Of a DNA stretch of 64,000 bases, positions 2,481 through 36,445 are shown piece after piece. The notes below the pieces were generated by a model. That model ran no database searches and was not told the DNA's origin. It saw nothing but the letters and a program-made list of their open reading frames with translations. The stretch spans positions 459 through 64,458 of the forward strand of contig MWYX01000061.1 of the NCBI GenBank assembly GCA_002050465.1. Reading direction: 5' to 3'. The translations under genes and the position numbers were made by a program. How positions within the stretch are numbered: the stretch's first letter is position 1; each line of letters opens with the position of its first letter. This stretch comes from Chitinophagales bacterium 65-1. Its GTDB lineage: Bacteria; Bacteroidota; Bacteroidia; Chitinophagales; Chitinophagaceae.

Positions 2481-2556
2481 AAGAGTTTTAAGGTGTTTAT
2501 AAAATTGCAAAACTTTCCATCAACTAACAAACCTATTTTTACATAAAGTTTTGTAC

Positions 2557-3192: not shown

Positions 3193-3869
3193 TGGCATTA
3201 ATACTAAATATAGATACGGCTACTGAAATTGCTTCAATTAGTATATCTGAAAAGGATATGATAATTCATTCTGCTACAAACACCAATCAAAAAGATCATG
3301 CCTCGTTTCTGCAACCGGCTATAAAAGATCTATTAAAAAAATCTCATCTCCCCATTAATAAATTGAATGCTGTAGCCATTACTGCAGGCCCGGGTTCATA
3401 TACAGGATTACGTGTTGGTATGGCCAGTGCAAAGGGATTGTGTTATGCGTTAAACATCCCTATGATAACCCTTAATACGCTGGAAGTAATGGCGTTATCT
3501 ACATTCAAACAAACAGAGGATAAATCAGCCTTGTATTGCCCGATGATTGACGCCAAAAGAATGGAGGTATTCACAGCAGTATATGATTACCAGCTTATAC
3601 AAATTATAGAACCCTGCGCAATGGTTTTAAGTGATAAATCTTTTAATGATACCCTGCAAACCAATAAAATTTATTTTTCGGGAAGCGGAATTAAAAAATT
3701 TAAAGAAATTAAAGATAACAAAAGAGCTGTTTTTTTAGATACAAAAATCGGTTCTGATGCTATGGCGCAATTATCGTATAAAAGTTATCTAAAAAAGCAC
3801 TTTGCAGATATTTACACCTCCTCACCTGATTATCTAAAGGAATTTTATACTGCATCTAAATTGGAATAA
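3192..3869 (+). CDS. tsaB: tRNA threonylcarbamoyladenosine biosynthesis protein TsaB
   Basis: ILNIDTAT, GPGSYTGLRVG, PMIDAKRMEV. Confidence 0.95.
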   Translation: MALILNIDTATEIASISISEKDMIIHSATNTNQKDHASFLQPAIKDLLKKSHLPINKLNAVAITAGPGSYTGLRVGMASAKGLCYALNIPMITLNTLEVMALSTFKQTEDKSALYCPMIDAKRMEVFTAVYDYQLIQIIEPCAMVLSDKSFNDTLQTNKIYFSGSGIKKFKEIKDNKRAVFLDTKIGSDAMAQLSYKSYLKKHFADIYTSSPDYLKEFYTASKLE

Positions 3870-3954
3870 TTGTTAAAAAGCCTTTTTTTGATGATTAATT
3901 ATTTCTTATATTTTTTACTGTTTCTTATCTTTACAATATCCAAACAACATTATT

Positions 3955-4305
3955 ATGTCTTCGGAATCTAACCAACAATTTGCTAACCAGGAAGCCGGTA
4001 AGGAAGGAGAAAATACATTGCATATTAATTATTACAATGTAAAAAAAGCTTCGCTCGTTCTTCGCTCATTAAATCATAAGCTTCGTCAGCAAATCGTTAA
4101 AATTATCAATGAGAACGAAAAGCTTGCGGTAACAGAGATTTATGTAAAGCTCAGGCTCGAACAATCTGTTGCTTCCCAACATCTTGCCATATTACGTAAG
4201 GCTGGTATAGTGGCTACAAAAAGGGAAGGTAAATTTATTTATTATACCATTAATAAGCAACGGGTTGAAGCGATTGATGAATTTGTAACAAAGCTGGTTG
4301 GTTAA
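3955..4305 (+). CDS. ArsR/SmtB family transcriptional regulator
   Basis: LNHKLRQQI...QSVASQHLAILRKAGIVATKREGKFIYY winged HTH. Confidence 0.92.
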   Translation: MSSESNQQFANQEAGKEGENTLHINYYNVKKASLVLRSLNHKLRQQIVKIINENEKLAVTEIYVKLRLEQSVASQHLAILRKAGIVATKREGKFIYYTINKQRVEAIDEFVTKLVG

Positions 4306-4388
4306 ACTTTACTTATTTATGTTTTGTAACACGGGTGCGATATAGTATCCGTTTTTTATTACATTATCTTTGTACTAATTATCTTTAT

Positions 4389-5792
4389 ATGTTCATAAAG
4401 CAAATTTATACAGGTTGCCTTAGCGAGGCAGCTTATTTTATTGAAAGCGAAGGCATAGCAGCAATTATTGATCCCTTAAGAGATGTAGATGCGTACATTA
4501 AACTGGCTAAAGAAAGAAATGCGGATATAAAATATATTTTTGAAACACATTTCCATGCTGATTTTGTAAGCGGCCACCTGGACCTAAGCAAGCAAACAGG
4601 TGCAAAAATTGTTTATGGCCCTGAAACAGAAACAAATTACACGGTTCACATAGCAAAAGATGGAGAAATTTTCTCTATTGGTAATATTACTTTACAAGCT
4701 GTACATACACCTGGGCATACAATTGAGTCTACATGCTATTTATTAAAAGATGAAAGTCAAATCCCGTATTGCATTTTTACCGGAGACACTTTATTTGTAG
4801 GCGATGTGGGAAGGCCTGACCTTAGCAGTGGCGACATGACCACAGAAGACCTGGCTTCCGTTATGTATGATACAATTCAAAATAAAATACTGCCTTTACA
4901 GGATAAAATTATTGTTTACCCCGCCCATGGTCCAGGAAGCAGTTGCGGAAAAAATCTGGGCCCGGATACCTTCAGCACCATTGGCGAACAAAAAAAAACA
5001 AACTATGCCCTCCAACCGCAATCAAGAGAAGAATTTATTAAGGCAGTCACATCTGGTTTAACTTCGGCTCCTGCTTATTTTGCGGTTAATGCAAAAATTA
5101 ATAAAGAAGGATATGATAGTCTTACTGAAGTAAAAACCAAAGGGCTTACACCTTTAACTGTAGAAGAATTTAAAAATAAGATTGCTGAAAATGTACTTAT
5201 ATTAGATACCCGCAAAGCTGCTGACTTTACGCAGGGATTTATTCCAGGTTCAGTATTTATAGGCCTTGAAGGAAGGTTTGCCGAATGGGCAGGAACTTTA
5301 CTTCCATTTCATGAGAGGATTATTTTAGTTACTGATGTGGGGATGGAAGAAGAAACCATTATCCGCCTTGCAAGAGTTGGCTTTGATAAAGTGGAAGGTT
5401 ATTTAAAGGGTGGCTTTGAAGCATGGGAAAATGCAAGTGAAAAGGTTGACCTGATAATTGATGTGGAAGCAGGTGAGCTGGCGCTGGATATAAAACATGA
5501 TCCTAAACTAACGGTATTGGATGTAAGACGGGAAACCGAATTTGGTGAAGGTCATATAAAAAATGCCATCAATTTACCCTTGTCTGATATGACTGATGTA
5601 GCGCAGATAGCAAATTTTGAAGATGACCAGAACTTATATATTCATTGTGCCGGAGGATACAGAAGTGTTATTGCAACATCACTGATGAAAAAACATGGAT
5701 ATCATAATCTGCGTAATGTTGTAGGTGGCTGGGGTAAAATTAAGGAAGAGAAAGATATTGAAATTGAAAAGGAAGCAAGTGTATTAAATTAA
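4389..5792 (+). CDS. MBL-fold hydrolase with two rhodanese domains (persulfide dioxygenase/sulfurtransferase-like)
   Basis: THFHADFVSGH, TPGHT, FTGD, PAHG, HCAGGYRS; start chosen downstream of promoter TATCTTTG (4365-4372). Confidence 0.9.
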   Translation: MFIKQIYTGCLSEAAYFIESEGIAAIIDPLRDVDAYIKLAKERNADIKYIFETHFHADFVSGHLDLSKQTGAKIVYGPETETNYTVHIAKDGEIFSIGNITLQAVHTPGHTIESTCYLLKDESQIPYCIFTGDTLFVGDVGRPDLSSGDMTTEDLASVMYDTIQNKILPLQDKIIVYPAHGPGSSCGKNLGPDTFSTIGEQKKTNYALQPQSREEFIKAVTSGLTSAPAYFAVNAKINKEGYDSLTEVKTKGLTPLTVEEFKNKIAENVLILDTRKAADFTQGFIPGSVFIGLEGRFAEWAGTLLPFHERIILVTDVGMEEETIIRLARVGFDKVEGYLKGGFEAWENASEKVDLIIDVEAGELALDIKHDPKLTVLDVRRETEFGEGHIKNAINLPLSDMTDVAQIANFEDDQNLYIHCAGGYRSVIATSLMKKHGYHNLRNVVGGWGKIKEEKDIEIEKEASVLN

Positions 5793-9547: not shown

Positions 9548-11668
9548 TCAGGCAGGCTCTAACCATGCATCATTTTCTTTGATAAGATCTATTAATTCAG
9601 CAACGGCTACATCTTCAGAAACTGATCTTTTTATAACTTCTTTTCCTTTATATAAAGTTATTTTACCGGGGCCACTGCCCACATATCCAAAATCAGCATC
9701 TGCCATTTCTCCCGGACCATTTACTATGCATCCCATAATGGCAATTTTTACCCCCTTAAGATGATTAGTAACGGCTCTTATTTTTGCAGTAGTTTCCTGC
9801 AGATCAAACAATGTTCTTCCGCAGCTTGGGCAACTAATGTATTCTGTTTTTGAAATTCTTGTACGGGTTGCCTGTAAAATTCCAAAAGCAATTGAGTTAA
9901 GAAATTTATTATCGGTTGGCACTTTTTTCTCAGAAAACCGATGCCCCAAACAAATTCCATCTCCAAAACCATCAAGTAACAATGCCCCGGTTTCTATTGA
10001 ATAATGAATAAGACTTTCGTCCATTATTTCATGCATACTGTCAGTAATTATTACGACAGGATTTTTTATGTCCTCATGTATTAACTGTAAAAACATTTTT
10101 CGAATACTCTGAACAGCATTCCGATTTGTAGAGCTTAAACATATCACAACAGTGCTGTCATTCTTTAATTTTGAAAATATTTTTTCAATATCAACCGCAG
10201 GATAACCATCAGAATAACAATCAATCATTACAAAATTAATAACTGCTGATGTTGTAATGGCATCATCTAAGTATTGTTCTTGATCAATAATGGGGAAATA
10301 TTTTTCTTTGTCTGTACAATTAAGCCATGTATTGTAATAACAGATCACTTTTAATGTTACCGGTAATGCAAAATCAATTAGCTGATCTGCGGTAAATAAA
10401 TAATCTGCAGCCGTATCACTAATATTCCATTTATCGGTAACTATATCATAAGTACAGCCTATAGCTTCTAAATCTTCACGTTTGATCTTTTCGATTTTAT
10501 GCAGGTCTCCAATAACAACCGGAACATGCTTATTGCCAATATTATTCACATCAATCGTTTCTCTTCTTTTATATTCAAAAGGAAGCCTCTCCCTAAATCC
10601 CTCTCCAATAGAGAGAAGCCTCTCCCTAAATCCCTCCCCGACAGGGAGGGACTTTGAAGATTCTCCTGTTTCGATATTTGTTTTGTTTATTGCAGTCTTG
10701 ACATTTAAATTTTTATCTGAAATTTCAAAAACATTTGTCTGGCTTTGTGTGTTGGCTAAGCCTCCCCCGTGGGGGGAGATTTGGAGGGGGCTGTATCGTT
10801 TCACAATATTTCTGCAAACAGGAATTTCTAATTCAGGATCTTCAGTTAATGAAACCCTTATTGTATCACCTATCCCATCTTCCAGTAATGTGCCAATACC
10901 AATAGCTGATTTAATTCTTCCATCTTCGCCGTCACCTGCTTCGGTAACACCCAAATGCAATGGATAACAATGCCCTAATTCATCATACATATTTTGAATC
11001 AGGAGCCTGTATGCCTGTACCATTACCTGGGGATTACTGCTCTTCATACTTAAGACAATATTGTAATATCCTTCACTCTCTGCTATCCGCAAAAATTCCA
11101 TGGCACTTTCAACCATCCCTATGGGTGTATCACCGTAACGGCTCATAATGCGATCACTCAATGAACCATGATTAGTACCAATACGCATAGCCGTACCGTA
11201 TTCTTTACAGATCTTCACTAAAGGAGTAAAGCGATTTCTTATACGCTCAATTTCTTCCAGATATTCCACATCAGAATATTCAAGTATTTCAAACTTTTTT
11301 TTATCTACATAATTACCCGGATTAATACGAACCTTCTCAACAAGCCTGGCTGCAATTTCAGCAGCATTTGGTGTAAAATGAATATCGGCAACTATAGGTG
11401 TATCGAACCCGTGTTTGCGTAATGCGTTTTTTATATTGATAAGGTTTTCTGCCTCTTTTTTAGAAGGCGCTGTAATACGGATAAGTTCAGAACCTGCTTC
11501 AATACAGCGAATACTCTGCTCTACGGTTGCAATAGTATCCATCGTATCGGTGGTAGTCATTGTTTGTATACGAATAGGATTAAAATTGCCTAACAGCAGA
11601 TGACCTGCTTTTACCGGGAGTGTGGCAAGCCGTTTATATTCCGTTAAGGATTCAGCGTATAACTGCAT
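9548..11668 (-). CDS. ispG: (E)-4-hydroxy-3-methylbut-2-enyl-diphosphate synthase, long form, with in-frame repeat insertion
   Basis: ADIHF, RINPGN, RIGTNHGSLS, LHLGVTEAG, SCPSCGR, MGCIVNGPGE. Confidence 0.97.
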   Translation of the reverse strand: MQLYAESLTEYKRLATLPVKAGHLLLGNFNPIRIQTMTTTDTMDTIATVEQSIRCIEAGSELIRITAPSKKEAENLINIKNALRKHGFDTPIVADIHFTPNAAEIAARLVEKVRINPGNYVDKKKFEILEYSDVEYLEEIERIRNRFTPLVKICKEYGTAMRIGTNHGSLSDRIMSRYGDTPIGMVESAMEFLRIAESEGYYNIVLSMKSSNPQVMVQAYRLLIQNMYDELGHCYPLHLGVTEAGDGEDGRIKSAIGIGTLLEDGIGDTIRVSLTEDPELEIPVCRNIVKRYSPLQISPHGGGLANTQSQTNVFEISDKNLNVKTAINKTNIETGESSKSLPVGEGFRERLLSIGEGFRERLPFEYKRRETIDVNNIGNKHVPVVIGDLHKIEKIKREDLEAIGCTYDIVTDKWNISDTAADYLFTADQLIDFALPVTLKVICYYNTWLNCTDKEKYFPIIDQEQYLDDAITTSAVINFVMIDCYSDGYPAVDIEKIFSKLKNDSTVVICLSSTNRNAVQSIRKMFLQLIHEDIKNPVVIITDSMHEIMDESLIHYSIETGALLLDGFGDGICLGHRFSEKKVPTDNKFLNSIAFGILQATRTRISKTEYISCPSCGRTLFDLQETTAKIRAVTNHLKGVKIAIMGCIVNGPGEMADADFGYVGSGPGKITLYKGKEVIKRSVSEDVAVAELIDLIKENDAWLEPA
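10582..10795. mobile_element. REP-doublet/MITE-like palindromic element in frame inside ispG
   Basis: 22-nt direct repeat gaagcctctccctaaatccctc (10582, 10615); hairpin aaatccctccc-cgaca-gggagggactt; inverted partner cctcccccgtggggggagatttggagggggctgta (10761-10795). Confidence 0.75.
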
Positions 11669-23417: not shown

Positions 23418-24995
23418 CTATTTGTATTGTGGAATTAATTCTTTCGCAAGGTCAACCATTTTTTTAATTCCTTCTTCCGGCAAATTTCCATTTTTAAACT
23501 CTGTCAAAACCTCCGGCATCCTGTTATCCATTTCCATTAAAAAATGGTCTTCAAAAGCTTTTACATTTTTAACAGCAACCTCACTTATCAATCCATTGGT
23601 TCCAAGATAGATAATAGCTACCTGTCTTTCTACAGCATAAGGAGAAAATTGTGGCTGTTTTAAAATCTCCACGTTTCTGGCTCCTTTATCCAATACAGAT
23701 TTTGTTGCAGCATCCAGATCACCCCCAAACTTTGAGAACGCTTCCAGCTCCCGATACAAGGCCTGGTCAAGCTTTAATGTGCCGGCAACTTTTTTCATTG
23801 ATTTTATTTGTGCATTACCACCCACACGGCTTACAGAAATACCTACGTTAATTGCAGGACGAATACCGGCATTAAATAGGTTGCCCTCCAAAAATATCTG
23901 TCCGTCAGTAATGGAAATTACATTTGTAGGAATATAGGCAGATACGTCACCAGCCTGAGTTTCAATGATAGGTAGAGCAGTTAATGACCCGCCGCCCTTC
24001 ACCAGGTGTTTAATATTTTCCGGAAGATCATTCATCTTCTGTGCAATCTCATCTTTAGAAATGATCTTTGCTGATCGTTCTAATAAACGACTGTGCAAAT
24101 AAAATACATCACCCGGATATGCTTCACGTCCGGGAGGTCTTCTTAATAAAAGAGAAACTTCCCGATATGCTACCGCCTGCTTACTTAGATCATCATAAAT
24201 AATTAGGGCAGAGCGGCCGGTATCTCTGAAAAATTCACCGATAGCTGCGCCGGCAAACGGTGCATAGAATTGCTGCGGGGCAGGATCGGAAGCAGAAGCT
24301 GCAACTATGGTAGTGTATTCCATTGCATCATTTTCCTGCAATGTTTTCATTACCTGTGCAATAGTAGACGCCTTTTGGCCAATTGCTACATAAATACAAT
24401 AAACGGGTTTCCCTGCTTTAAAAAATTCTTTTTGATTGATAATAGTATCCACACAAATTGCACTTTTGCCGGTTTGACGGTCACCAATTACCAACTCTCT
24501 TTGTCCGCGGCCAATCGGTATCATGGCATCAATGGCTTTAATACCGGTTTGCAGCGGTTCTTTTACCGGCTCACGAAAAATTACACCGGGCGCTTTACGC
24601 TCCAGCGGCATTTCAAACAGATCTCCTGTTATCGGGCCCTTTCCATCAATTGGATCACCTAATGTATTAATAACCCTTCCGGCTAAACCATCCCCTACTT
24701 TTATAGAAGCAATTTTACCCGTACGCCGAACAGTAGCGCCTTCCTTTACATCTCCCTGGTCACCCATCAAAACCACACCAACGTTATCTTCTTCAAGGTT
24801 TAATGCAATTGCTTTTACTCCGTTTTCAAATTCCACTAATTCCCCGGAACTAACATTATTTAGCCCATATATTCTTGCAATACCATCACCAATCTGCAAT
24901 ACAGTACCTATTTCTTCCAGGTTTGCTTCTGCATCAAAATTGCTAAGTTGTTCACGCAGGATTGCCGATATTTCATCAGGTTTAATATCTACCAT
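23418..24995 (-). CDS. atpA: F1 ATP synthase alpha subunit
   Basis: [29 protein letters not shown]. Confidence 0.99.
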
Positions 24996-25005
24996 ATAAA
25001 AAAAA

Positions 25006-25569
25006 TTATCTTAGTTTTTGAATATAATCGTTGTTCATAAATTGTTTTTGCACATCGTTAAGATCTCTGCGAATGCTGGCATCTGCTAAATATCCTTCCA
25101 TTTCCAGCACAAACCCGCCAACAAGGTTCTCATCAACTACAGTTTCTAATTCAATATTTTCTATCTCTTCCGAAACTTTTATTTTATTAATGAAATCGTT
25201 TTTTATTTCATCGCTTATTTCAATTGCTGTTGTAAGCTTAACTTTATGAATGCCTTTTGCCACATTATATTGTTGAATAAAGGCTGATATTATTTCAGGA
25301 AAATTAGATTCCCTGTTTTTGGTACCTAATAATTTAATAAATGAAGCGGTTAATTTACTTATCCTTCCTGCTGTTACTGATTCAATTATCTTATTCTTTT
25401 TATCTTCTTTAATGATAGGACTTTTAAGAACATTGGCAAACTCACGGCTGGTTTTGCAAATATTATCCAGCAATTTCATATCATTAAATACTTCTTCCAG
25501 CTGTCCTTTTTCCTGTGCAAGATCAAGTAAGCTTTTTGCGTATCGTATTGCTAAACGTGGATTTGTCAT
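25006..25569 (-). CDS. atpH: F1 ATP synthase delta subunit
   Basis: RYAKSL, TTA, LVGGF..DASI; operon position. Confidence 0.95.
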
Positions 25570-25570
25570 A

Positions 25571-25645
25571 ATGTGCAAATTAGCTGATGTGCTGATGTGC
25601 AGATTGGAAACTCTTTAATCTACACATTTGCATATCTGCATATTT
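25571..25645. repeat. Converging octamer arrays between atpF and atpH
   Basis: atgtgcaa attagctg atgtgctg atgtgcag ... atctacac atttgcat atctgcat. Confidence 0.8.
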
Positions 25646-25646
25646 T

Positions 25647-26141
25647 CTAATTCATTTTTACATTTTCTGCCAGTTGTTTAATATATTTTTCCTGCTCCTG
25701 TTTGTTGCTTAATTCCCTGCGCAATATTTTCTCGCTTACTTCCACTACTAATGTTCCAACCTGGTTTTTAAGGTCAGTTAATGCAGCCATTTTTTGTTGT
25801 TCTATTACTGATTGTGCGTCTGCAATAATTTTATTTGTCTCAACTTTTGCCTGCTCTTTTGCCTCGCTGATAATTTTATCTTTTGTATCTTTTGCGTCCC
25901 TAAGCATTTGCCCTCTTTCTTCCCGTGCTTTTACCAGTAATTCCTCATGCTCGCTTTTCATTTGAGACATTTCAGTTTTTATTCTTTCTGCTGTTGCCAA
26001 TGAATCAGCAATCCCCTGTTCACGGTCGTTCATTGACTTTAAAATGGGCTTCCATGCATATTTTTTAAGAATAAAAAATACAATAAGGAAAGCAAGCAGT
26101 GTCCAGATTATTAAACCAAAGCCTGGTGTAAGTAATTGCAT
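25647..26141 (-). CDS. atpF: F0 ATP synthase b subunit
   Basis: N-terminal TM segment, WKPILKSMNDRE, coiled coil. Confidence 0.96.
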   Translation of the reverse strand: MQLLTPGFGLIIWTLLAFLIVFFILKKYAWKPILKSMNDREQGIADSLATAERIKTEMSQMKSEHEELLVKAREERGQMLRDAKDTKDKIISEAKEQAKVETNKIIADAQSVIEQQKMAALTDLKNQVGTLVVEVSEKILRRELSNKQEQEKYIKQLAENVKMN

Positions 26142-26311
26142 TTTAAAACTGTTTAAAAGGTTTAACGTTCCAGAGGTTTAAGGTTGTGTAACGATAAAAC
26201 TCTTTGTTGAATAATGCTATAAAAGTACAAGTGAGTGACACAACGATGTTTAATAGCAGCACTGAAGCCGGCTACCAAAATCAAAAAACACTCAATTGTA
26301 AAAGAACTTTC

Positions 26312-26353
26312 AAAAAAATACTGCACTCTCCGCCCTGTGCATTGAGTGCAGTA
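26312..26353 (-). terminator. Terminator-like hairpin between atpE and atpF
   Basis: 10-bp perfect stem tactgcactc (26319-26328)/gagtgcagta (26344-26353) plus a U-run on the minus strand. Confidence 0.7.
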
Positions 26354-26360
26354 ATGTGTT

Positions 26361-26642
<282 letters not shown>

Positions 26643-27818
26643 CTAAACAATAACCGCTTCTGCATGTCCATCCACATCTTCATGTCCACCTTCAAACGCC
26701 TGACCGATAAATACTGCGGTAAGGTTTGTAAAAATATATGCCTGTAAAAATGCCACCAGTAGTTCTATAAGATAGATGAACACCACAAATGCAATTGATA
26801 GTGGTGAAAATCCCCAGCCGATATAGGTACTTAGTGCTCCGAAAATAAATATCAATGATATTAAGCATATAATAATGATATGCCCGGCAATCATATTTGC
26901 AAAAAGACGTATCATTAATGCAAAGGGTTTGGTAAATACCCCTAAAATTTCCACGGGAATTAAAATTGGTTTTACTCCAATGGGTACAGGCGGATTAAAA
27001 ATGTGTGCCCAATAATGTTTATTGGTGCTCAACATAATAATAACAAAAGAGATTACGGATAAAACCAGCGTAAATGCAATATTGCCTGTAACGTTTGCTG
27101 AGCCAGGTATTAAACCAACCAGGTTGTTTATAAGGATGAAAAAGAAAACCGTAAGCAGGTAGGGGAAATATTTTTTGTATTTCTTGCCCAGGTTTGGCTT
27201 TGCAACCTCATCTCTAACGAAAGTGATAATAGGCTCTATTAAATTCTGTACTCCTTTTGGTGCAGTGGTTACGCCTTGTCCGCTCCTGTATTTTTTTGCC
27301 ATATACAACATTACCCAAACCAATAATCCAAGTGCCAAAAACATTTGAACAACGTTACGGGTAAGAGAAAAGTCATACACTTTTACGGTGTTATCTATGT
27401 CACCATTTTCTTTTACAGCAACAATTTGTTCTGCTGAATATTTTTTTGGGTCAAGTTTTTGGTCAGTTATTTTATCATTTGTAATAATATCATAACCATT
27501 ATAAGAATGCTCTCCATGATGAAATTTGGAGGACATGAAAATATCGAGGCCCTTTTCTTTCGAGTAAAGAATTACAGGTAGCGGGATAGTGGCATGATGT
27601 TCTTTACCATTACTGCCTTTATAAGATAAAAAATGAAATTCATGAGCATCTAAAACGTGGCCAAAAATTACCTTATTCGCATCAAAGCCTTCCTTTTTAG
27701 CCTTTTCGGCTTTATGTTTTTCTTCATGCCTTTCCTGTGCAAAACACATATTAGAAAAATTTATTAAAAATAAGCTGAAAACGGCTACCAATATAGTTTT
27801 ACTGCACTTTGCCATCAT
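26643..27818 (-). CDS. atpB: F0 ATP synthase a subunit (Bacteroidota long N-terminus)
   Basis: PFALMIRLFANMIAGH, LVAFLQAYIF. Confidence 0.97.
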   Translation of the reverse strand: MMAKCSKTILVAVFSLFLINFSNMCFAQERHEEKHKAEKAKKEGFDANKVIFGHVLDAHEFHFLSYKGSNGKEHHATIPLPVILYSKEKGLDIFMSSKFHHGEHSYNGYDIITNDKITDQKLDPKKYSAEQIVAVKENGDIDNTVKVYDFSLTRNVVQMFLALGLLVWVMLYMAKKYRSGQGVTTAPKGVQNLIEPIITFVRDEVAKPNLGKKYKKYFPYLLTVFFFILINNLVGLIPGSANVTGNIAFTLVLSVISFVIIMLSTNKHYWAHIFNPPVPIGVKPILIPVEILGVFTKPFALMIRLFANMIAGHIIIICLISLIFIFGALSTYIGWGFSPLSIAFVVFIYLIELLVAFLQAYIFTNLTAVFIGQAFEGGHEDVDGHAEAVIV

Positions 27819-27846: not shown

Positions 27847-27948
27847 AGGCTGGAAAGGGGAAATTAAAAATTAGAATGGAAATAAATTGAGAGTAATACT
27901 AACCATAGATAATGTTTCCGTACTTTGAATCATAAAAATAAAAAAGCA

Positions 27949-28515
27949 ATGCTGGGTCCTGTTATAGATTATTTTAATAGCATTACGCCTTTACCTGAGG
28001 AGCTGATTAATGACCTTGTAAAGTTTGCAGTTATAAAAGAATTTAAAAAAGATGATTTTATTCTAAAAGCAGGGGAAGTATCCAACTATACATCCTGGAT
28101 CTTAAAGGGCCTAGTGCGCAGTTATTATGAAAAAGAAACGGAAGAAGTTACTACTAAATTTTTATGGGAGGGGGCACCCATTACATCTATATATAGTTAT
28201 TATAGAAGGAAACCCGGTAATGAAAATATTGTAGCATTGGAGGATACACAAGTAGCTAGCATGCATTATGATCACATGCAATATCTGTACAAAACGTATC
28301 CGGCTTTTAATTTCATCGGTAGGGTAGTGACAGAGCAATATCTGTACATGTTGGAGATTGAAGTTTATAATTTTAGAAAACAAAAGGCAGAGGACCGCTA
28401 TAAATTTATTGTTAAACACTTTCCTCATTTATTACAAAGGGTACCCTTGAAATATTTAGCTACTTATTTAGGGATGAACCTGGAAACATTGAGTCGTATC
28501 AGAGCCAAAAAGTAA
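27949..28515 (+). CDS. Crp/Fnr family transcriptional regulator
   Basis: cNMP-binding fold (KGLVRSYY, ALEDT) and HTH LATYLGMNLETLSRIR. Confidence 0.93.
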   Translation: MLGPVIDYFNSITPLPEELINDLVKFAVIKEFKKDDFILKAGEVSNYTSWILKGLVRSYYEKETEEVTTKFLWEGAPITSIYSYYRRKPGNENIVALEDTQVASMHYDHMQYLYKTYPAFNFIGRVVTEQYLYMLEIEVYNFRKQKAEDRYKFIVKHFPHLLQRVPLKYLATYLGMNLETLSRIRAKK

Positions 28516-28527
28516 TAGGGTTCAAGT

Positions 28528-28578
28528 TTGACTTTTGTCAAATTCTTTTTTTGATAGAATGAATTTGACTTTTGTCAA
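28528..28578. promoter_or_regulatory. Two identical TTGAC-TTTT-GTCAA palindromes (probable Crp/Fnr operators)
   Basis: Copies at 28528-28541 and 28565-28578; same geometry as the FNR box TTGAT-N4-ATCAA. Confidence 0.75.
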
Positions 28579-28623
28579 CTACATTGACCTGGTAATGGTA
28601 TTTCTTTGAATAAATAAAAATTC

Positions 28624-30276
28624 ATGTGTATGGAATACAAATCACCCCTTTCAATGCTTTATCATTGGGAAAAACATACGCCAGATGAAGTTTACCTTAA
28701 ACAGCCTATTAATGATGTATGGCACAACTGGACTTGGAAACAAACAGCTGGAGAAGTAAGACAATTAGCTACAGCTCTTATAGCCATACAACTGCCGCCC
28801 AACAGCCATATAGCAATGATTTCCAAGAACTGTGCCCATTGGATTATTGCTGACCTCGCAATTATGATGGCTGGTCATGTATCTGTTCCTCTTTATCCAA
28901 ATTTACAGGCAACAACTATTCAGCAAATATTAGAACATAGCGAGGCAAAGTTGTTACTGGTGGGCAAACTCGACGACTGGGATTCTATGAAAGCAGGTGT
29001 GCCTGAAGGTTTAAAATGTATCTCGTTACCTTTTTGTAATCATGATGGATGTGTATCCTGGGTAAGTTTTACAAGTATTCATCAACCCTGTAAAGAAAAT
29101 TTAGATAGAAAGGAGACTGATACCTGCTCGATTGTTTATACATCAGGCACTACCGGGTTACCGAAAGGTGTTATGTTCACTTTCAAAAGCTTTAGTTTTT
29201 CAGCCCAGCATGCAACAGCGCATCTCAGCCTTAAAAATACGGAGCGATTTTTCTCTTATCTCCCGCTTTCACATATAGCCGAAAGAATGCTGGTTGAAAT
29301 GATAAGTTTGTACGCAGGCGCACAAGTTTATTTTGCAGAATCCTTACAAAAATTTCCAAAAAATTTAGCAGAAGCAAAGCCAACAGTTTTTTTGGGAGTG
29401 CATCGAATATGGACAAAATTTCAACAGGGTATTCTATCCAAAATGCCACAGAAAAAATTGGATGTTCTTCTGAAGATTCCCATATTATCCAGTATCATTA
29501 AAAAGAAAATCAAAAGTGGTCTTGGATTAAGCGAGGCTACTACAATTTTAACCGGTGCTGCTCCTACGCCTGCTTCTCTTATAAAATGGTATAAAAGCAT
29601 TGGTATAAAAATTCAGGAAGCCTATGCTATGACCGAGAACTGCTGTTATTCACATGTTACCTTAAATAAAAAAATTAAAATAGGTTTTGTTGGACAGCCG
29701 TTGCCACAATGTGAAGTTAAATTAGGAGAGAATAATGAAATTCAAATTAAACATGAAGCTCTGATGGCAGGATATTACAAAGATGCGGAGATGACAAGTT
29801 CCGCCTTTACAGATGAGGGATTTTTAAAAACCGGAGATGAAGGTTATATTGATGAGGAAAATTTTTTAAAAATAACAGGCCGGGTAAAGGATATATTTAA
29901 AACAGCTAAAGGAAAATATGTTGCGCCTTCACCTATCGAAATGAAATTCTCCATCAATCATGACCTGGAGCAGGTATGCGTGGTTGGTTCCGGACTACCA
30001 CAGCCTATTGCATTAATTACATTATCTGAAAAAGGTAGAAAAAGAAAGGCAGAAGAAATAAATGATGACATAAAAGAAACTCTTAACAATATTAACCCGA
30101 CACTGGATGGCCACGAAAAAATAGATAAAGTAGTAGTGCTGCAAGATGAATGGACGATAGAAAATAACCTGCTCACCCCTTCTTTTAAAATAAAGCGTAA
30201 TGAAATTGAAAAAAAGTATACGGAATTTTACGCATCGTGGTTAAACAGTAAAGGTGATGTTACATGGCAGAAGTAG
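28624..30276 (+). CDS. Long-chain fatty acid-CoA ligase (AMP-binding family)
   Basis: YTSGTTGLPKG, YLPLSHIAER, EAYAMTE, TGDEG, GRVKD, LTPSFKIKR. Confidence 0.92.
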   Translation: MCMEYKSPLSMLYHWEKHTPDEVYLKQPINDVWHNWTWKQTAGEVRQLATALIAIQLPPNSHIAMISKNCAHWIIADLAIMMAGHVSVPLYPNLQATTIQQILEHSEAKLLLVGKLDDWDSMKAGVPEGLKCISLPFCNHDGCVSWVSFTSIHQPCKENLDRKETDTCSIVYTSGTTGLPKGVMFTFKSFSFSAQHATAHLSLKNTERFFSYLPLSHIAERMLVEMISLYAGAQVYFAESLQKFPKNLAEAKPTVFLGVHRIWTKFQQGILSKMPQKKLDVLLKIPILSSIIKKKIKSGLGLSEATTILTGAAPTPASLIKWYKSIGIKIQEAYAMTENCCYSHVTLNKKIKIGFVGQPLPQCEVKLGENNEIQIKHEALMAGYYKDAEMTSSAFTDEGFLKTGDEGYIDEENFLKITGRVKDIFKTAKGKYVAPSPIEMKFSINHDLEQVCVVGSGLPQPIALITLSEKGRKRKAEEINDDIKETLNNINPTLDGHEKIDKVVVLQDEWTIENNLLTPSFKIKRNEIEKKYTEFYASWLNSKGDVTWQK

Positions 30277-30315
30277 TATAAACTATGATTAAACAATTTT
30301 AATAAAACAAAGTTT

Positions 30316-30606
30316 ATGAAAAACAGTGTCTGGAATACAAGGAAAATCATTCTTGCTGTAAGTATTATTTTGCCTTTTACCTTCTTTCCATTTATATTAT
30401 TAGATTATCTGGGTATAGAAACTTATCTGATCGGTAAAATTCGGGGAGTCTTTATGTTTACCTATCTTATTCAAATTTTATTACCTATAGTTATTTTAAT
30501 ATTGTATATAAGGAGTAATGAAAATCGCAAGCAATTACTTTATGCAGCAATTATATCAATTGTCACAATTATAATGCTTTTTATAACAGTTATATCTAAC
30601 CTATGA
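30316..30606 (+). CDS. Small hypothetical membrane protein (about 3 TM segments)
   Basis: 96 aa, three hydrophobic stretches; ATGA overlap with the next gene. Confidence 0.65.
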   Translation: MKNSVWNTRKIILAVSIILPFTFFPFILLDYLGIETYLIGKIRGVFMFTYLIQILLPIVILILYIRSNENRKQLLYAAIISIVTIIMLFITVISNL

Positions 30607-31124
30607 TTATTAAACCTGCAACAGATTTAAATGAGTTTTTGCAGATCCATGATCTTAATTATAAAACTTTTGTTGAGGAAATTCCTCAGAACCAGCCTAA
30701 TCGTGAAAAAATACTGATAGATAAATTTCATATGAAAAATCATTACATAATTGCAAAAAGAGATGATAAAGTAATAGGCATGGTCTGCTACAACTGGAAA
30801 CGTCCATTTTCCTTAGATGAAAAAATAAATGATTTAGATCGACATCTCCCAAAACACTCAAAGCTGGCAGAGATCAGGTTACTTTCAATTTGTAATGATG
30901 AACGTAAAACCATGGTTGCTTACCGGCTATTTCAATATTTAAGTACTTTGCTAATACAACAAGGAACCGATGCAGCAGTTATTTCAGGAACTACCAGGCA
31001 AATCAGATTATATACCCGTATGGGATTTATTCCTTTCGGTAGTTTAGTAGGTTCCGGGGAGGCTCTTTATCAGCCAATGTATATCACTTTAAAAGATCTG
31101 CGATATGATTTCAAAAATAGTTAA
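30603..31124 (+). CDS. GNAT-fold acyltransferase, LuxI/FeeM (N-acyl amino acid synthase)-like
   Basis: LNYKTFVEE...IDKFH...VIGMV...AEIRLL...LYTRMGF pattern. Confidence 0.75.
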   Translation: MIIKPATDLNEFLQIHDLNYKTFVEEIPQNQPNREKILIDKFHMKNHYIIAKRDDKVIGMVCYNWKRPFSLDEKINDLDRHLPKHSKLAEIRLLSICNDERKTMVAYRLFQYLSTLLIQQGTDAAVISGTTRQIRLYTRMGFIPFGSLVGSGEALYQPMYITLKDLRYDFKNS

Positions 31125-32133
31125 CTTAAGTACTGGCCCCGTAGCTATATCATCCCAAGTGATGAAAGCTTTACAAAACGCTCCTATTTCTCACAGATCG
31201 CAAGAGTTCAAACAGTTGTATTGTAAAACTACAGATCTTCTAAGCAAATCATTTCATGTGCAGAAAACTTTTCTTCTTTCAGGAAGTGGAACCCTTGCTA
31301 ATGAGTCTATGCTTCAAGATATTAAATGCATAGATGGGGATGGATTGATTATTTCTAATGGGGAATTTGGAAACAGGCTAATTAATCAGGCACGGGCTAT
31401 TCGATTAAAATTTATATTCCATCAACTGGATTGGGGTATGTTGTTTAATTTTCAGGAAATTGAACAGATAATAATTCACAAATCAATTAAATGGATATTA
31501 TTCTGTCATTGCGAAACATCTACAGGTGTTGTAAATGACTTGAATGAGTTAACCATATTAGCTAAAAGGAACGATTGCCTTTGTTTTGTTGACTGCATGA
31601 GTACGGTTGGTACAATGCCGCTAAATCTATCTAAGGTAACTATGGCTACAGCCTCTTCAGGAAAGGGGCTGGCCTCAATTCCGGGACTGGCGGTTGTTTT
31701 CTCAAATATAAAGCCTTCGTTAAAGAAAAGCACTCCGGTTTATTTAGACCTAAGCCACTATTCAATAAAATCCGGGATACCGTTCACTATTTCTTCTAAC
31801 CTTTTACAAGCATTGCACACTTCCATTTGCCAAAAGCTTCAGGAAGAGCAGTTTGAATTGATAAATGAATACGGAAAACAATTTTTTAAAATATTAAATA
31901 GCTATGATTCCGTTCCTTTCAGTAATAGCAGTACAAAAGTATTTACTATAGTAGAATCGGTAAAGAGAGAACCAAATTTAGTTTCTTATTTAAGAGGCAA
32001 ACAGTTATTGTTAAGTGAGGAAAGTGATTATTTGAAGAAAAGGCGTTGGTGTCAGTTAGCTACTTTTGGATATTATAGAGAAACTCAATTAAAATATGTG
32101 TTGAAGACTTTAAAGCATTCTTTCCTTTCATAA
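31105..32133 (+). CDS. Class V PLP-dependent aminotransferase (PhnW/AGT-like fold)
   Basis: STGPV, SHRS, SGSGT, NGEFGNR, HCETSTG, DCMS, SSGKGL (PLP lysine). Confidence 0.88.
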   Translation: MISKIVNLSTGPVAISSQVMKALQNAPISHRSQEFKQLYCKTTDLLSKSFHVQKTFLLSGSGTLANESMLQDIKCIDGDGLIISNGEFGNRLINQARAIRLKFIFHQLDWGMLFNFQEIEQIIIHKSIKWILFCHCETSTGVVNDLNELTILAKRNDCLCFVDCMSTVGTMPLNLSKVTMATASSGKGLASIPGLAVVFSNIKPSLKKSTPVYLDLSHYSIKSGIPFTISSNLLQALHTSICQKLQEEQFELINEYGKQFFKILNSYDSVPFSNSSTKVFTIVESVKREPNLVSYLRGKQLLLSEESDYLKKRRWCQLATFGYYRETQLKYVLKTLKHSFLS

Positions 32134-32165: not shown

Positions 32166-33944
32166 TTATTTTGAGAATATCTCCTCAGCATTCTCCTGCT
32201 GTGCAAACTGCATTTTATGTAGCTGGTAATAGGATCCCTGTTTTTCTAAAAGCTCGTTGTGGGTTCCCATTTCTTTTATCTCTCCTTTATCCAAAACCAG
32301 AATCTTATTTGCTTTTCTTATGGTAGAAAGACGATGGGCAATAACAATTGAGGTTCTCCCATAAATAAGTTTATCTATCGCCTGCTGAATTAATATCTCG
32401 CTTTCTGTATCTATTGAAGATGTTGCTTCATCGAGAATTAGAATAGAAGGGTTGTATAATAGTGCTCTGATAAACGATAATAATTGCCTTTGCCCGAGAG
32501 ATAGCGTTGCGCCTCTTTCCATAACATTGTAATCATAGTTGCCCGGCAGCTGCATAATAAAATTATGAACACCGATTAACTTTGCAGCTTGTATTACTTC
32601 TTCCTTTTTTATGTTTGTGTTCCGGAGCGTTACGTTATCATAAATCGATCCGCTGAATAAAAAAACATCCTGCAACACAACGGCTATATTACTCCTCAGG
32701 TAATCTAAATTATACTGGCTGATATCAGTATCATCAATTTTAATTTTACCTTTTTGAATATGATATAAACGGTTAAGCAAACTGATGATGGAGGTTTTCC
32801 CGCTGCCCGTATGCCCAACAATGGCAAGCGTTTCTCCCGCTCGTATACTAAATGAAATATCTTTTAAAACGTACTGCTCATCATTGTATGCAAACCATAC
32901 TTTTTCAAATTCAACTTTGCCCTTTAATTTTTCAGAAGAGGTTATTTCTTTCTCTGTTGTGGGTACAAAATCTTCATTCTCCAACACTTTAAACACCCGC
33001 TCACTTGCCACCATTCCCATTTGCAGCACATTAAATTTATCTGCGATTACACGCAATGGCCTGAACAATAAATTCAGGTACATTATAAATGAGATAATAA
33101 CTCCTGCATTAAAAGAATTATTAGCTCCCCACCAAACTAAAAGCCCGGTAGAAAATGCCAGCACAATTTCTACCACAGGAAAAAAAACTGAATAAGCCAG
33201 GATAGCCCTGATGTTTGCATTGCGATGCTCCATGTTGATCTTTTTAAATTTTTCAAACTCTTTATCTTCTACAGCAAAAGCCTGTACCACCGCCATCCCC
33301 GTAATATGTTCCTGAACAAATGCATTAAGATTGGCCACTGCATTACGTACGGCAATAAAAGATTTATTCACGCTCTCTTTAAAAAAATAAGTAGCTATTA
33401 TTAATATGGGGAATGGAGCAAGGCTTATTAATGCAAGCCTCCAATCAACATAGAACATAAAACACAAAATTGAAACTATAGAAAGTATATCTGCAATGAT
33501 CGGGATAAGTCCATCAGAAAAAATATCGTTTATGGATTCAACATCATTTACTGTTCGTGTGGTTAATGTACCAATCGGCGTTTTATCAAACTGGGAAAGA
33601 TTTAAGCCCAGTACTTTTTTATAGACAGTAACCCTTAGATCTTTAATAACTGACTGGCCAAGCCATGCAGTGATGTAGGTGAAATAAAAACGAAGACCTG
33701 TTTCAAATAAAAGCATTCCTATCTGGATCACAGTTATAAGTATGAGCCAGTAAGTATCCTTATCCTTAATAAAATTATTTACTGTGTATTGAATAAGAAA
33801 GGGCCTGAGTGGTGATATTACAGCTAAAATAACAGAGAGGAAAATGGAAGTATATAATATCCTTTTGTAGGGTATGGCAAATTTAAATACTTTTTTAAGC
33901 AGCCTGATATCGAATACTTTCTTCCCCTTTTTTTTTGATGGCAT
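32166..33944 (-). CDS. ABC transporter ATP-binding/permease (MdlB/MsbA-like)
   Basis: TM domain, GHTGSGKT, LSLGQRQ, ILDEATS. Confidence 0.95.
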   Translation of the reverse strand: MPSKKKGKKVFDIRLLKKVFKFAIPYKRILYTSIFLSVILAVISPLRPFLIQYTVNNFIKDKDTYWLILITVIQIGMLLFETGLRFYFTYITAWLGQSVIKDLRVTVYKKVLGLNLSQFDKTPIGTLTTRTVNDVESINDIFSDGLIPIIADILSIVSILCFMFYVDWRLALISLAPFPILIIATYFFKESVNKSFIAVRNAVANLNAFVQEHITGMAVVQAFAVEDKEFEKFKKINMEHRNANIRAILAYSVFFPVVEIVLAFSTGLLVWWGANNSFNAGVIISFIMYLNLLFRPLRVIADKFNVLQMGMVASERVFKVLENEDFVPTTEKEITSSEKLKGKVEFEKVWFAYNDEQYVLKDISFSIRAGETLAIVGHTGSGKTSIISLLNRLYHIQKGKIKIDDTDISQYNLDYLRSNIAVVLQDVFLFSGSIYDNVTLRNTNIKKEEVIQAAKLIGVHNFIMQLPGNYDYNVMERGATLSLGQRQLLSFIRALLYNPSILILDEATSSIDTESEILIQQAIDKLIYGRTSIVIAHRLSTIRKANKILVLDKGEIKEMGTHNELLEKQGSYYQLHKMQFAQQENAEEIFSK

Positions 33945-34064: not shown

Positions 34065-36278
34065 TTATGTGCCTCCTGCTTTTGAATAAGCCTTGATAAA
34101 TAATGCACCAAGATTTTTATGAGGGGGGATGTAATCATCAAAAAGATCTTTTTTATCTCTTCCGGCTTTTGATAATATAACTTCCAAGTTATTCCACATC
34201 TGGCGCCAGTCAATATTTTTGCCGGCACGTAACGTATTATTGATAGCCTCAATAATCGGTTTATTTACATCCCTTGCACCTGTTTGTTTTGTAGAAATTA
34301 TATGTGCTTCCGGGGCATAATCCAATATTTGTTTTAAGTTATTATAACCACCGCATGAGCCCAGCATAATTATTTTTGCAGAAAATGGTAATTGTTTGAT
34401 GGTGTATTTTAAGTGATAGCTATGACCCCGGTGAACCACAAAGGTAGGCCTGAGATTATTTACATCAAGATAATCTATGAGTGCTGATTGTGCCTGGGCA
34501 TCTTTATCAGTCTCATTGTCCAATGGGCGGTTCGCAAATATCCATACGGGTTTGCCTTTTAATGATTTTATCTCTACCCATTGTTCTTTTACTGTACGTT
34601 TCCACTCTGTAGAAGGAAAAGAGGATAAAAAGCTTGTATAAGACCCTTTACCATCTTCGTCTCCATAAAAAAATACCTGCTCAATAATTCTCCCTGTATC
34701 ATCTGCCAGTGTACTATTTTCAACTGTATATATAGGCGGGATGCCAATTTCTTTTGATAGGTCTATATGGTTTGTAGAATCGCCGGAAAGAAAGATTGTT
34801 TTTAAAAGATTATATATTTTTATACCCCGCGCATTTCCATTTTTTATGCACCGCTGTTCATTATCTGACACATATTTAAGCATAGACCTAAGCAGTACAG
34901 GGTTACGGATACTGCCATAAGAATCTGCAACATCTACCGCATCTTCAAAATCATCTTCTGATGATGAACTTTCTAAATTGGCAACAAATCCTTTCATTAA
35001 TGTTTCTGAGTTATTTTTCATAGTTCTTAAAAATGTATCCAGCCTGTTATAGCCTGCTGCCATTTTTATGAACTTTTTAAAATGATCAAAATTCACTGAC
35101 ATAAGCAATGAATCTCCGTGGGGCCTTTTACCCATTCGATTAAGCATATAATCAAATGCATGCTTATAGCTTGATGTATAAATGTCGTTTTCACTTAATA
35201 CCAGCATATAATAAAGATCCCTGGGATCAAGCGGCGCAATTGCTTTAAATCTTATTGCCGGATTACTAACATCATGCAGGTTATTAATTGGTGTAACAAA
35301 ATGAAGTATAGCCCTGTTTTTAAGCATATCCGTTAACCCGTTTACACCAAGCATTGCTACAGGTGTATCCTTATTAACCAACCGGCTATAATAATCAATT
35401 TGAGTTTTTACTAATAATTTATAATATCCTACACTATCATATTTTGTACTATCAGTTCCAACGAATTTGGATATACTTTCTATTGTTTGCTTTCCACTGA
35501 TAAGGTCATCTAAAAAAGGAAAATAAAATAAAGCATCTTTCCTGCTACTTAGCTGAACAATTGTTTTAATTCGGTTATCCGGGTTTCTTTTTATCAACTT
35601 CCCTTGGGGACTGCTTATTGCCTGTGCATAGTTATATATTTGAACGGGGCTTCTGCGATAGGCGGTCATTACAAGTTCATCAGCAAATGGCTCATCTACA
35701 TAAGGGCCAATACTTGATAAAATTTTATCCGGATGGAGTTCGATATACTTTAAAAATAATATTTTTCTTGTTTCTTTATATCCGGGATTTTCTTTAAAAA
35801 TTTCCGAGTTAATAACACCAACATTGTAATGAGCCTGACTAATATAAGATGCCATATTTTCTCCCATGAGATTGGCCTTTAAAATATCGGTGAAATTGCT
35901 TACCAATTGAGGCGTAAGTGTAGGTGCAAGCTTGTGGGATTTAACGTTTGTTGTAAAACTTTTTACGAGATTTTCTATATATCTTAAATATCTTTTTTTC
36001 TCGTTATCAGTATCAAGTACCTGGTTAAGCTCTACATCATTTCTTAATTTATTTACTTTTCTTATAATTGCATCTGTAACCTGCATATTTACTTCCTCTA
36101 AAGCAGATACTTTTATAATGCCATCTATTTTGCCATCTATTTTATCGGCTTTTTGTTGTTCAGCTTTTATTTTATCATGAAATAGCTGCCTTTTTAAAGG
36201 AACATTTGTTGTATCCCCATAGGCGAAGGTGAAAATGGGGATCAGTAAGGTTATAAGTGAGTAAAAAAAATTCTTCAT
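34065..36278 (-). CDS. Large secreted hypothetical protein with possible clan-CD peptidase C-terminal domain
   Basis: Signal peptide from MKNFFY; FVVHRGHS and IIMLGSCGG motifs. Confidence 0.75.
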   Translation of the reverse strand: MKNFFYSLITLLIPIFTFAYGDTTNVPLKRQLFHDKIKAEQQKADKIDGKIDGIIKVSALEEVNMQVTDAIIRKVNKLRNDVELNQVLDTDNEKKRYLRYIENLVKSFTTNVKSHKLAPTLTPQLVSNFTDILKANLMGENMASYISQAHYNVGVINSEIFKENPGYKETRKILFLKYIELHPDKILSSIGPYVDEPFADELVMTAYRRSPVQIYNYAQAISSPQGKLIKRNPDNRIKTIVQLSSRKDALFYFPFLDDLISGKQTIESISKFVGTDSTKYDSVGYYKLLVKTQIDYYSRLVNKDTPVAMLGVNGLTDMLKNRAILHFVTPINNLHDVSNPAIRFKAIAPLDPRDLYYMLVLSENDIYTSSYKHAFDYMLNRMGKRPHGDSLLMSVNFDHFKKFIKMAAGYNRLDTFLRTMKNNSETLMKGFVANLESSSSEDDFEDAVDVADSYGSIRNPVLLRSMLKYVSDNEQRCIKNGNARGIKIYNLLKTIFLSGDSTNHIDLSKEIGIPPIYTVENSTLADDTGRIIEQVFFYGDEDGKGSYTSFLSSFPSTEWKRTVKEQWVEIKSLKGKPVWIFANRPLDNETDKDAQAQSALIDYLDVNNLRPTFVVHRGHSYHLKYTIKQLPFSAKIIMLGSCGGYNNLKQILDYAPEAHIISTKQTGARDVNKPIIEAINNTLRAGKNIDWRQMWNNLEVILSKAGRDKKDLFDDYIPPHKNLGALFIKAYSKAGGT

Positions 36279-36445
36279 AATATATTGCTCTAATGCAAAA
36301 ATAGTTCCCATTGAGGGGTCCGTAAGCAGCCAACCTTCAATTAAGATAGCAAATACTTACTGTATAGCTGCATGTTATAATGTATTAACCTTTTTTTATG
36401 AAGGCAAACATTTTACAACGCTACTATCAGATGATAATCCGTTTT

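Follow-up and report, generated by a model that had tools for sequence, protein, structure and literature searches.

Related systems and the identification of the operon

Long-chain N-acylation of amines is known from several bacterial systems. The N-acyl synthase (NAS) of Gemella haemolysans, when expressed in E. coli, gave rise to N-palmitoyl and N-oleoyl serinol, as described in reviews and in a 2026 PNAS paper, and G. haemolysans nas was used in PMC13012048. FeeM (PF21926; structure 2g0b) acylates tyrosine from acyl carrier protein-bound chains (acyl-ACP) and has no aminotransferase partner, and the OlsB/OlsA and GlsB/GlsA pairs (PMC11631085) combine a PF13444-type N-acyltransferase with a PlsC-like O-acyltransferase, following a two-acylation logic on an amine-bearing head group that derives from a proteinogenic amino acid. 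A route to serinol phosphate is also known, as RtxA from Bradyrhizobium elkanii uses its N-terminal domain to transaminate dihydroxyacetone phosphate (PMC3222319). Here, we analyzed a 64-kb stretch of DNA, referred to as the window, from a soil Chitinophagaceae genome (assembly G000; 1.96 Mb, 79.5% complete) and describe a block of five co-directional open reading frames (ORFs), all on its + strand, encoding a Crp/Fnr-family regulator, a fatty acid-CoA ligase-like enzyme, a small membrane protein, an N-acyltransferase of the GNAT superfamily and a pyridoxal phosphate (PLP)-dependent aminotransferase. With a probability of about 0.6, we read this block as an operon under Crp/Fnr control that would make a lipid by N-acylating an amino alcohol, with N-acyl serinol or N-acyl serinol phosphate as the likeliest product.

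Judged by homology, the GNAT and the PLP enzyme correspond to the N-terminal and C-terminal domains, here encoded apart, of NAS-aminotransferase fusion proteins, a very large family that includes a protein from Gemella. Both halves are homologous to this Gemella protein (P0395) and the same chemistry is expected of them, the making of an amino alcohol followed by long-chain N-acylation, but the Gemella domains lie in a single polypeptide, whereas the window has two overlapping genes accompanied by the ligase, the membrane protein and the Crp/Fnr regulator with a putative operator. The window GNAT shares the Pfam family and the fold of FeeM (Z 18.0 against 2g0b over 165 residues) at an identity of only around 15%, and differs from it in having a PLP partner. 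Unlike the Ols and Gls systems, the window has no PlsC-like enzyme, and the amine would be made in situ by the aminotransferase. RtxA is likened to the PLP enzyme by the proposed reaction alone. A further relative, the PlsY-coupled or PlsY-fused NAS-aminotransferase module described below, uses the same GNAT and PLP families; the window is without its PlsY paralogue. The original prediction, which saw here a candidate uncharacterised N-acyl-amine or aminolipid pathway, is partly supported: its core does have a characterised relative, being homologous to a Gemella protein of a family reported to make N-acyl serinol.

The junctions between the genes, given in the ORF list and read from the sequence, were all as originally predicted. 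The ligase and membrane genes are separated by 39 nt (30277–30315), the membrane gene and the GNAT gene overlap by ATGA at 30603–30606, and the GNAT and PLP genes overlap by 20 nt (31105–31124), with ATG 31105 as the sole start codon available for the PLP gene there, because V6 is encoded by GTT. A terminator scan found no terminator-like site on the + strand within the five-gene block, in line with the predicted lack of an obvious terminator between the ligase and membrane genes. Many related loci, from metagenomes and genomes alike, show this gene order as well, and the arrangement is therefore more than chance.

The GNAT and PLP enzyme as halves of a widespread fusion family

The family was surveyed by scanning one genome per species, which gave 80 genome loci whose flanking ORFs were clustered. 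Relatives of the window GNAT at 45–54% identity were found in at least eight phyla, with a PLP homologue directly after the GNAT in approximately 72 of the 80 loci. In 62 of them the two formed one ORF of around 525–590 amino acids (in Verrucomicrobiota, Bacillota, Thermodesulfobacteriota, Acidobacteriota, Planctomycetota, Chloroflexota, Methylomirabilota and Pseudomonadota), which bears out the proposed functional link between the two enzymes. Split GNAT and PLP genes were confined, among these loci, to Bacteroidota and one Chloroflexota locus. At least 5087 proteins, generically annotated and carrying PF13444, PF21926 and PF00266, were retrieved at E ≤ 1e-20 with a profile of the fused form, and a library clustered at 50% identity contained 1054 representatives of the fused family at E ≤ 1e-30.

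A gene of the PlsY family (PF02660, about 200 amino acids) stood immediately upstream of the fusion in 53 of the 80 loci, and the two genes often overlapped by 4 nt. The adjacent PlsY of two Bacillaceae, Cytobacillus firmus and Terribacillus halophilus, was an extra, more divergent copy (111 vs. 185 and 143 vs. 180 bits, respectively), and two proteins, P0250 (734 amino acids) and P0269 (768 amino acids), were triple fusions of PlsY, FeeM and Aminotran_5 domains. By the Rosetta-stone argument such fusions indicate that the three act in one pathway, and the coupling and fusion to PlsY elsewhere give independent backing to the lipid or lipid-signal product that had been proposed for the window. 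In a cursory look at the PlsY paralogues, the residues contacting the 2-OH of glycerol phosphate were not obviously lost and the equivalent of His177 was kept, which gave no support either way. The window's genome encodes one PlsY, on another contig, and has no dedicated paralogue beside the GNAT-PLP pair.

The family also showed variations on this layout. P0325 (641 amino acids) likewise joins PlsY, a FeeM-type GNAT and a class-V aminotransferase in one protein. L050, L058 and L074 encode a PlsY-like protein and a GNAT with no adjacent aminotransferase, a 4HBT thioesterase gene following in L074, and L073 (Chitinispirillaceae, 2549–4383) has a class I/II aminotransferase after the GNAT instead of a class-V enzyme. 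In four Bacillaceae loci (L027 at 9553–11415, L032, L033 and L070), the fusion gene is followed by one for a 620-amino acid Sulfatase-family protein, with the size and domain position of LtaS/EptA-like transferases. L068 (2004–3386) encodes a 460-amino acid protein with a C-terminal FeeM-type domain (residues 285–437) and an N-terminal part of approximately 280 amino acids without a Pfam match.

The Gemella member was reached through the most AT-biased representatives of the family and their clusters, the first profile search having listed Bacillaceae and Sporosarcina only. Representative P0300 stands for a 90% cluster of 1246 members that includes proteins named from Gemella, and the Gemella protein P0395 (524 amino acids) carries PF13444 and Aminotran_5. 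The window GNAT is 51% identical to residues 1–166 of P0395 (166 amino acids, E 9e-48) and the PLP enzyme 35% identical to residues 180–443 (265 amino acids, E 4e-46); on these alignments, a member of the family with homology to both proteins of the window is present in Gemella. In the literature, nothing was found that pairs hm-NAS with an aminotransferase.

The PLP enzyme and the identity of the amine

The PLP enzyme (31105–32133, + strand; 342 amino acids) belongs to the AGT/PhnW/SerC subgroup of class-V aminotransferases and matched Pfam Aminotran_5 (PF00266) with 48.1 bits (cut-off 21.5). Its predicted structure (pLDDT 95.2) has the subgroup-IV fold, with TM scores of 0.84–0.88 to AGT, PhnW and subgroup-IV aminotransferases, and it shares with PhnW, AGT/SPT and SerC the Schiff-base Lys (K187), the PLP-binding Asp (D163) and a motif of the HCETSTG type. 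Across 41 family members, R31, E137, T138, S139, D163, S185 and Q317 were invariant and H30, G186 and K187 at least 90% conserved, and the motifs singled out in the original prediction (HCETSTG, Asp163 and Lys187 in SSGKGL) all stand on invariant or near-invariant columns.

Two features of the active site point to the substrate. The SHRS motif (His30-Arg31) aligns with GHRT of SerC from the same genome, and in E. coli SerC this pair of residues binds the substrate at its distal anionic group (PMC6797613). In HMMER alignments, the invariant Gln317 takes the position of the carboxylate- or phosphonate-binding Arg of AGT and PhnW. The Arg that binds the substrate carboxylate (Arg347 in AtAGT1) has been described as ‘found in all aminotransferases’ (PMC6797613); the PLP family thus departs from class V in this conserved residue. 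The SerC-like His-Arg pair together with Gln in place of Arg fits a phosphorylated substrate without an α-carboxylate, namely dihydroxyacetone phosphate, which would be converted to serinol phosphate. To be used by PlsY, an acceptor must carry a phosphate and, next to position 2, a free hydroxyl (PMC5700162), and serinol phosphate offers exactly such groups.

If the amine were instead an amino acid, 2-aminoethylphosphonate (AEP) or another phosphorylated amino alcohol, the operon would make a different N-acyl amide or aminolipid. The nearest structures and NCBIfam models of the PLP enzyme are indeed AEP transaminases (TIGR03301 with 123.3 bits, TIGR02326 with 87.3 bits; 7e7g, E 2.8e-47 with the family profile), the fold alone does not reveal reaction or substrate, and L073, with its class I/II enzyme, and L050, L058 and L074, with no adjacent aminotransferase, are compatible with other amines. 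However, the two transaminase models score far below their cut-offs (360.8 and 400.8 bits, respectively), and phosphoenolpyruvate (PEP) mutase was not found in five module-carrying genomes, including the 79.5% complete genome of the window, which makes AEP unlikely and led to its rejection as the amine. The invariant Gln in place of a carboxylate-binding Arg argues against an amino-acid product, the coupling and fusion to PlsY call for a glycerol 3-phosphate-like acceptor with a free hydroxyl (pocket in PMC5700162), and the Gemella member ties the family to N-acyl serinol. We regard a different amine as distinctly improbable, and serinol phosphate as the preferred candidate.

The best PDB match of the PLP enzyme in a phmmer search, 9os7 (E 1.4e-21), has a domain layout of similar length and was considered as an N-acyl synthase relative. 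It was rejected, as the entry is the methionyl-tRNA synthetase of Mycoplasma penetrans with N-terminal ancillary domains. This synthetase bears a class-V aminotransferase-like domain at its N-terminus.

The GNAT as a probable N-acyl synthase

The GNAT (30603–31124, + strand; 173 amino acids) exceeded the Pfam cut-offs for FeeM (32.2 vs. 27 bits, residues 15–147) and, marginally, for Acetyltransf_5 (PF13444; 23.2 vs. 22.4 bits), with higher scores for the latter in fused relatives (e.g. 30.9 bits in L011). Autoind_synth (PF00765), the family of LuxI-type acyl-homoserine lactone synthases, was not among its Pfam matches at E ≤ 0.01, and the likeness to those enzymes is structural only; of the families proposed for checking, FeeM, Acetyltransf_5 and Aminotran_5 were thus recovered and Autoind_synth was not. 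An alignment of 46 homologues contained 26 invariant columns, and the pattern quoted in the original prediction (NYKTFVEE, DKF, AEIRLL and LYTRMGF) falls on invariant or near-invariant ones. Close homologues, of 173 amino acids and 60–82% identity, are from Chitinophagaceae, and the cultured relative Pseudoflavitalea sp. X16 encodes a GNAT 68% identical to that of the window.

The predicted structure (pLDDT 88.8) matched FeeM, BjaI, RpaI, LasI and TofI with Z 17.4–18.1 over 165–173 of its 173 residues. A pathway of small-molecule acetylation, or a catabolic pair comparable to PhnO and PhnW, would have nothing to do with lipids and would make the neighbouring ligase a coincidence. The GNAT goes under the name ‘N-acetyltransferase YhbS’ in source annotations, small acetyltransferases share the top fold score, and the sequence-level PDB matches are weak, all of which could be taken to favor such a role. 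Against it, both Pfam families above cut-off are of the FeeM/N-acyl synthase type, FeeM/LuxI-type structures are the only ones to span the whole model, and there are two independent links to lipid enzymes, one to PlsY (as a paralogue or a fusion) across most phyla and one to an acyl-CoA ligase within this lineage. An acetylation role is accordingly highly improbable, and the assignment as a FeeM/N-acyl synthase-type enzyme rather than a small acetyltransferase, as made at the outset, is retained.

The ligase, the membrane protein and the history of the operon

The ligase gene (28624–30276, + strand) encodes a long-chain fatty acid-CoA ligase-like adenylating enzyme of 550 amino acids, and may start at ATG 28630, because its relatives align from residue 3. 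The product matched Pfam AMP-binding (PF00501, 219.6 bits) and AMP-binding_C_3 (PF23562, 41.7 bits); its best NCBIfam models were long-chain-fatty-acid-CoA ligase and FadD11, all of them below cut-off (e.g. PRK06187, 210.8 vs. 476 bits). Among 27 split-type loci with enough upstream sequence to be informative, around 20 have the ligase directly upstream of the GNAT, with spacers of 20–150 nt and GNAT identities of 65–97%. It is missing from the split-type loci L002, L004, L096, L102, L118 and L119, and also from L114. Other Chitinophagales genomes encode ligase orthologues of 53–56% identity with no Crp, GNAT or PLP gene nearby, no association with a ligase was seen outside Bacteroidota in the 80 genome loci, and no orthologue was found in the 15 same-genus genomes searched. 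Going by this distribution, the ligase is an addition specific to the lineage and confined to a single clade of Chitinophagaceae. The original prediction had made it part of the pathway and had staked itself beforehand on co-occurrence; the ligase and the Crp/Fnr gene do accompany the GNAT-PLP pair within the lineage, but the ligase lies outside the conserved core.

We only infer that the ligase would feed acyl chains to the GNAT. With the same core chemistry, it could be an ordinary acyl-CoA synthetase for scavenging fatty acids, placed under the same Crp/Fnr-controlled promoter, while the GNAT would use acyl-ACP as FeeM does. The solitary orthologues in other Chitinophagales, the split loci without a ligase (with L114 carrying the Crp gene directly before the GNAT) and the lack of association outside Bacteroidota are all in keeping with such a scavenger, as is the binding of ACP by FeeM, stated in the title of its structure paper as cited in PMC11631085. 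On the other hand, the adjacency of ligase and GNAT persists across most of the informative loci, with short spacers and over GNAT identities of 65–97%, and this usually marks a functional link, while the CoA-dependent enzymes of the same fold, BjaI, RpaI and MesI, are among the best structural matches of the GNAT. A mere scavenger is therefore considered unlikely, though a more serious contender than either a different amine or acetylation, and a ligase serving the GNAT is preferred.

The history of the lineage was followed in the split-type metagenome and genome loci, using a tree of the PLP enzymes that was rooted on fused forms only. The split forms made up one clade (100/100 support), in which L118, L004 and L114 branch first and the ligase-coupled loci lie inside, with a small subclade that has lost the ligase. 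The operon thus appears, from this branching order, to have grown stepwise. What is new in this lineage, as far as the compared sequences tell, is the split form, the stable partnership with a ligase in place of PlsY, and the dedicated Crp/Fnr regulator with a conserved putative operator.

The small membrane protein (30316–30606, + strand; 96 amino acids) has three hydrophobic stretches and matched no Pfam or NCBIfam family. It is restricted to the subclade of the window (the window, L003, L090–L094, L097 and L121), with 33–35% identity in L003 and 40–89% in the others, and a shared ILLDYL.IET motif. The suggestion that the last three genes form an independently acquired cassette was accordingly not borne out, as the conserved unit consists of the last two. 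The protein sits where the PlsY paralogue stands in the PlsY-coupled module, and was considered as a remnant of PlsY; this was rejected, with an hhalign probability of 0.5%. Across 30000–31000 of the window, which covers the membrane and GNAT genes, the G+C content is 0.30–0.32, compared to around 0.35–0.37 in the surroundings. Together with the operon not being found in the same-genus genomes searched, this hints at patchy inheritance or horizontal transfer.

The regulator and its putative operator

The first gene of the block (27925–28515 with a TTG start, 196 amino acids, or 27949–28515 with an ATG start, 188 amino acids; + strand) encodes a Crp/Fnr-family regulator that matched Pfam cNMP_binding with 34.6 bits (cut-off 27.5); no helix-turn-helix family was reported by Pfam. 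Its C-terminal helix carries ETLSRIR, which we take to be the E--SR motif of FNR-type proteins, which read TTGAT-type half-sites. Each of the 10 related loci that offered 2.3 kb or more of upstream sequence has an orthologue, with 73–97% identity, upstream of the ligase. In L114, an orthologue and a palindrome are located directly upstream of the GNAT-PLP genes (3355–5498), with no ligase. In L107, the Crp gene lies in two frames (matches at 1881–2147 and 2138–2443), which may be due to a frameshift.

The spacer between the Crp and ligase genes of the window contains two perfect TTGACTTTTGTCAA palindromes of the FNR type, assigned to neither strand, which are putative operators: a distal one at 28528–28541 and a proximal one at 28565–28578. 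No other exact TTGAC-N4-GTCAA site occurs in the 64-kb window or in the entire 1.96-Mb assembly; the count is in itself unexceptional, as a control pattern was also found twice. The sites are conserved: each of the 11 related loci examined, among them L114, has a TTGAY-N4-RTCAA match in the spacer that follows its Crp gene, and a second, distal palindrome occurs in L090, L091, L094, L105, L107 and L111.

The proximal palindrome is followed, 20 nt downstream, by a TATTTCTTTG box (28599–28608, + strand) that lies approximately 15–20 nt before the start of the ligase gene. A box identical or nearly identical to it follows the proximal palindrome in all 10 ligase-bearing loci, including L003. From this conservation and its resemblance to the Bacteroidota -7 element (near TAnnTTTG), the TATTTCTTTG box would act as a promoter element; a sigma-70 promoter scan and a plain TAnnTTTG scan were both uninformative. 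Taken together, the arrangement suggests a dedicated Crp/Fnr regulator that would act on a single promoter preceding the ligase gene.

A proposed pathway to N-acyl serinol

In the proposed pathway, the regulator would bind the TTGAC-N4-GTCAA sites and turn on the single promoter before the ligase gene, and the four downstream genes would be transcribed together and translationally coupled. The aminotransferase would convert dihydroxyacetone phosphate to serinol phosphate with an amino acid as donor, the ligase would activate a long-chain fatty acid, and the FeeM-type GNAT would acylate the amine with a long chain taken from acyl-CoA or acyl-ACP. The product might then be dephosphorylated to free N-acyl serinol, serving as a signal, or acylated again to a doubly acylated serinol phosphate, serving as a membrane lipid. 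A second acylation, if it follows, would yield a serinol-based lipid backbone, which is the obvious product of the PlsY-coupled module.

Several points weigh against this reading. The function of the locus is predicted from sequence comparison, and findings from the fused, PlsY-coupled forms may not carry over to the window, which is without a PlsY paralogue. The tie to a tested enzyme runs through Gemella, from which Cohen et al. in 2017 reportedly cloned a NAS-aminotransferase fusion, and P0395 is a candidate for this cloned nas. Small acetyltransferases score as well against the GNAT model as the FeeM-type structures do (Z 18.3–18.8, over 142 residues). The classical donor of FeeM-type enzymes is acyl-ACP, and with this donor the ligase would have no direct role. 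Lastly, the GNAT was not found in 24 same-genus genomes, and the operon is therefore patchy and dispensable.

A bolder version of the proposal is that the operon constitutes a Chitinophagaceae serinophospholipid pathway, in which serinol phosphate would receive a first acyl chain on its nitrogen and a second on an oxygen, and the resulting amide-linked phosphatidic acid analogues would enter the membrane, with the ligase and possibly the membrane protein replacing PlsY and the whole switched by Crp/Fnr. A thermophilic bacterium was described in 2025 as a source of serinophospholipids (Vyssotski et al., J Nat Prod 88:373), membrane lipids with a diacylated serine-derived backbone, as summarized in a citing paper (PMC13388977); no published link between them and GNAT-PLP genes was found. 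This version is speculative and, in our estimate, rather unlikely to hold in full; if true, it would mean a conditional remodelling of the membrane backbone.

The locus is of interest on several counts. The N-acyl serinols of gut bacteria have host receptors (GPR119) as targets, and serinol-backbone lipids were presented in 2025 as a third natural class of phospholipids. The enzyme family is very large, with at least 5000 proteins from many phyla annotated only as ‘aminotransferase’ or ‘GNAT’, and the natural split of the domains in the window makes their separate biochemical study easy. The presence of an acyl-CoA ligase in place of PlsY bears on the origin of the acyl chain, and the dedicated regulator with its recognisable putative operator gives a handle on when such lipids are made. 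With Pseudoflavitalea sp. X16, a relative is in culture in which lipidomics could address the question.

Genes surrounding the operon

Downstream of the operon, an MsbA-like ABC exporter (32166–33944, - strand) is convergent with the PLP gene, the two stop codons lying 32 nt apart. It is followed by a gene for a 748-amino acid protein (34065–36311, - strand) that has an N-terminal hydrophobic stretch, belongs to no Pfam or NCBIfam family and has a counterpart with 75% identity in L091. Both were considered as operon members and rejected, as their synteny extends only to the closest relative, L091, and the exporter is therefore probably unrelated to the operon. On the other side, an F-type ATP synthase-like operon (23418–27818, - strand), in which the alpha, delta, b, c and a subunits were recognized by eye, is divergent from the Crp/Fnr gene.

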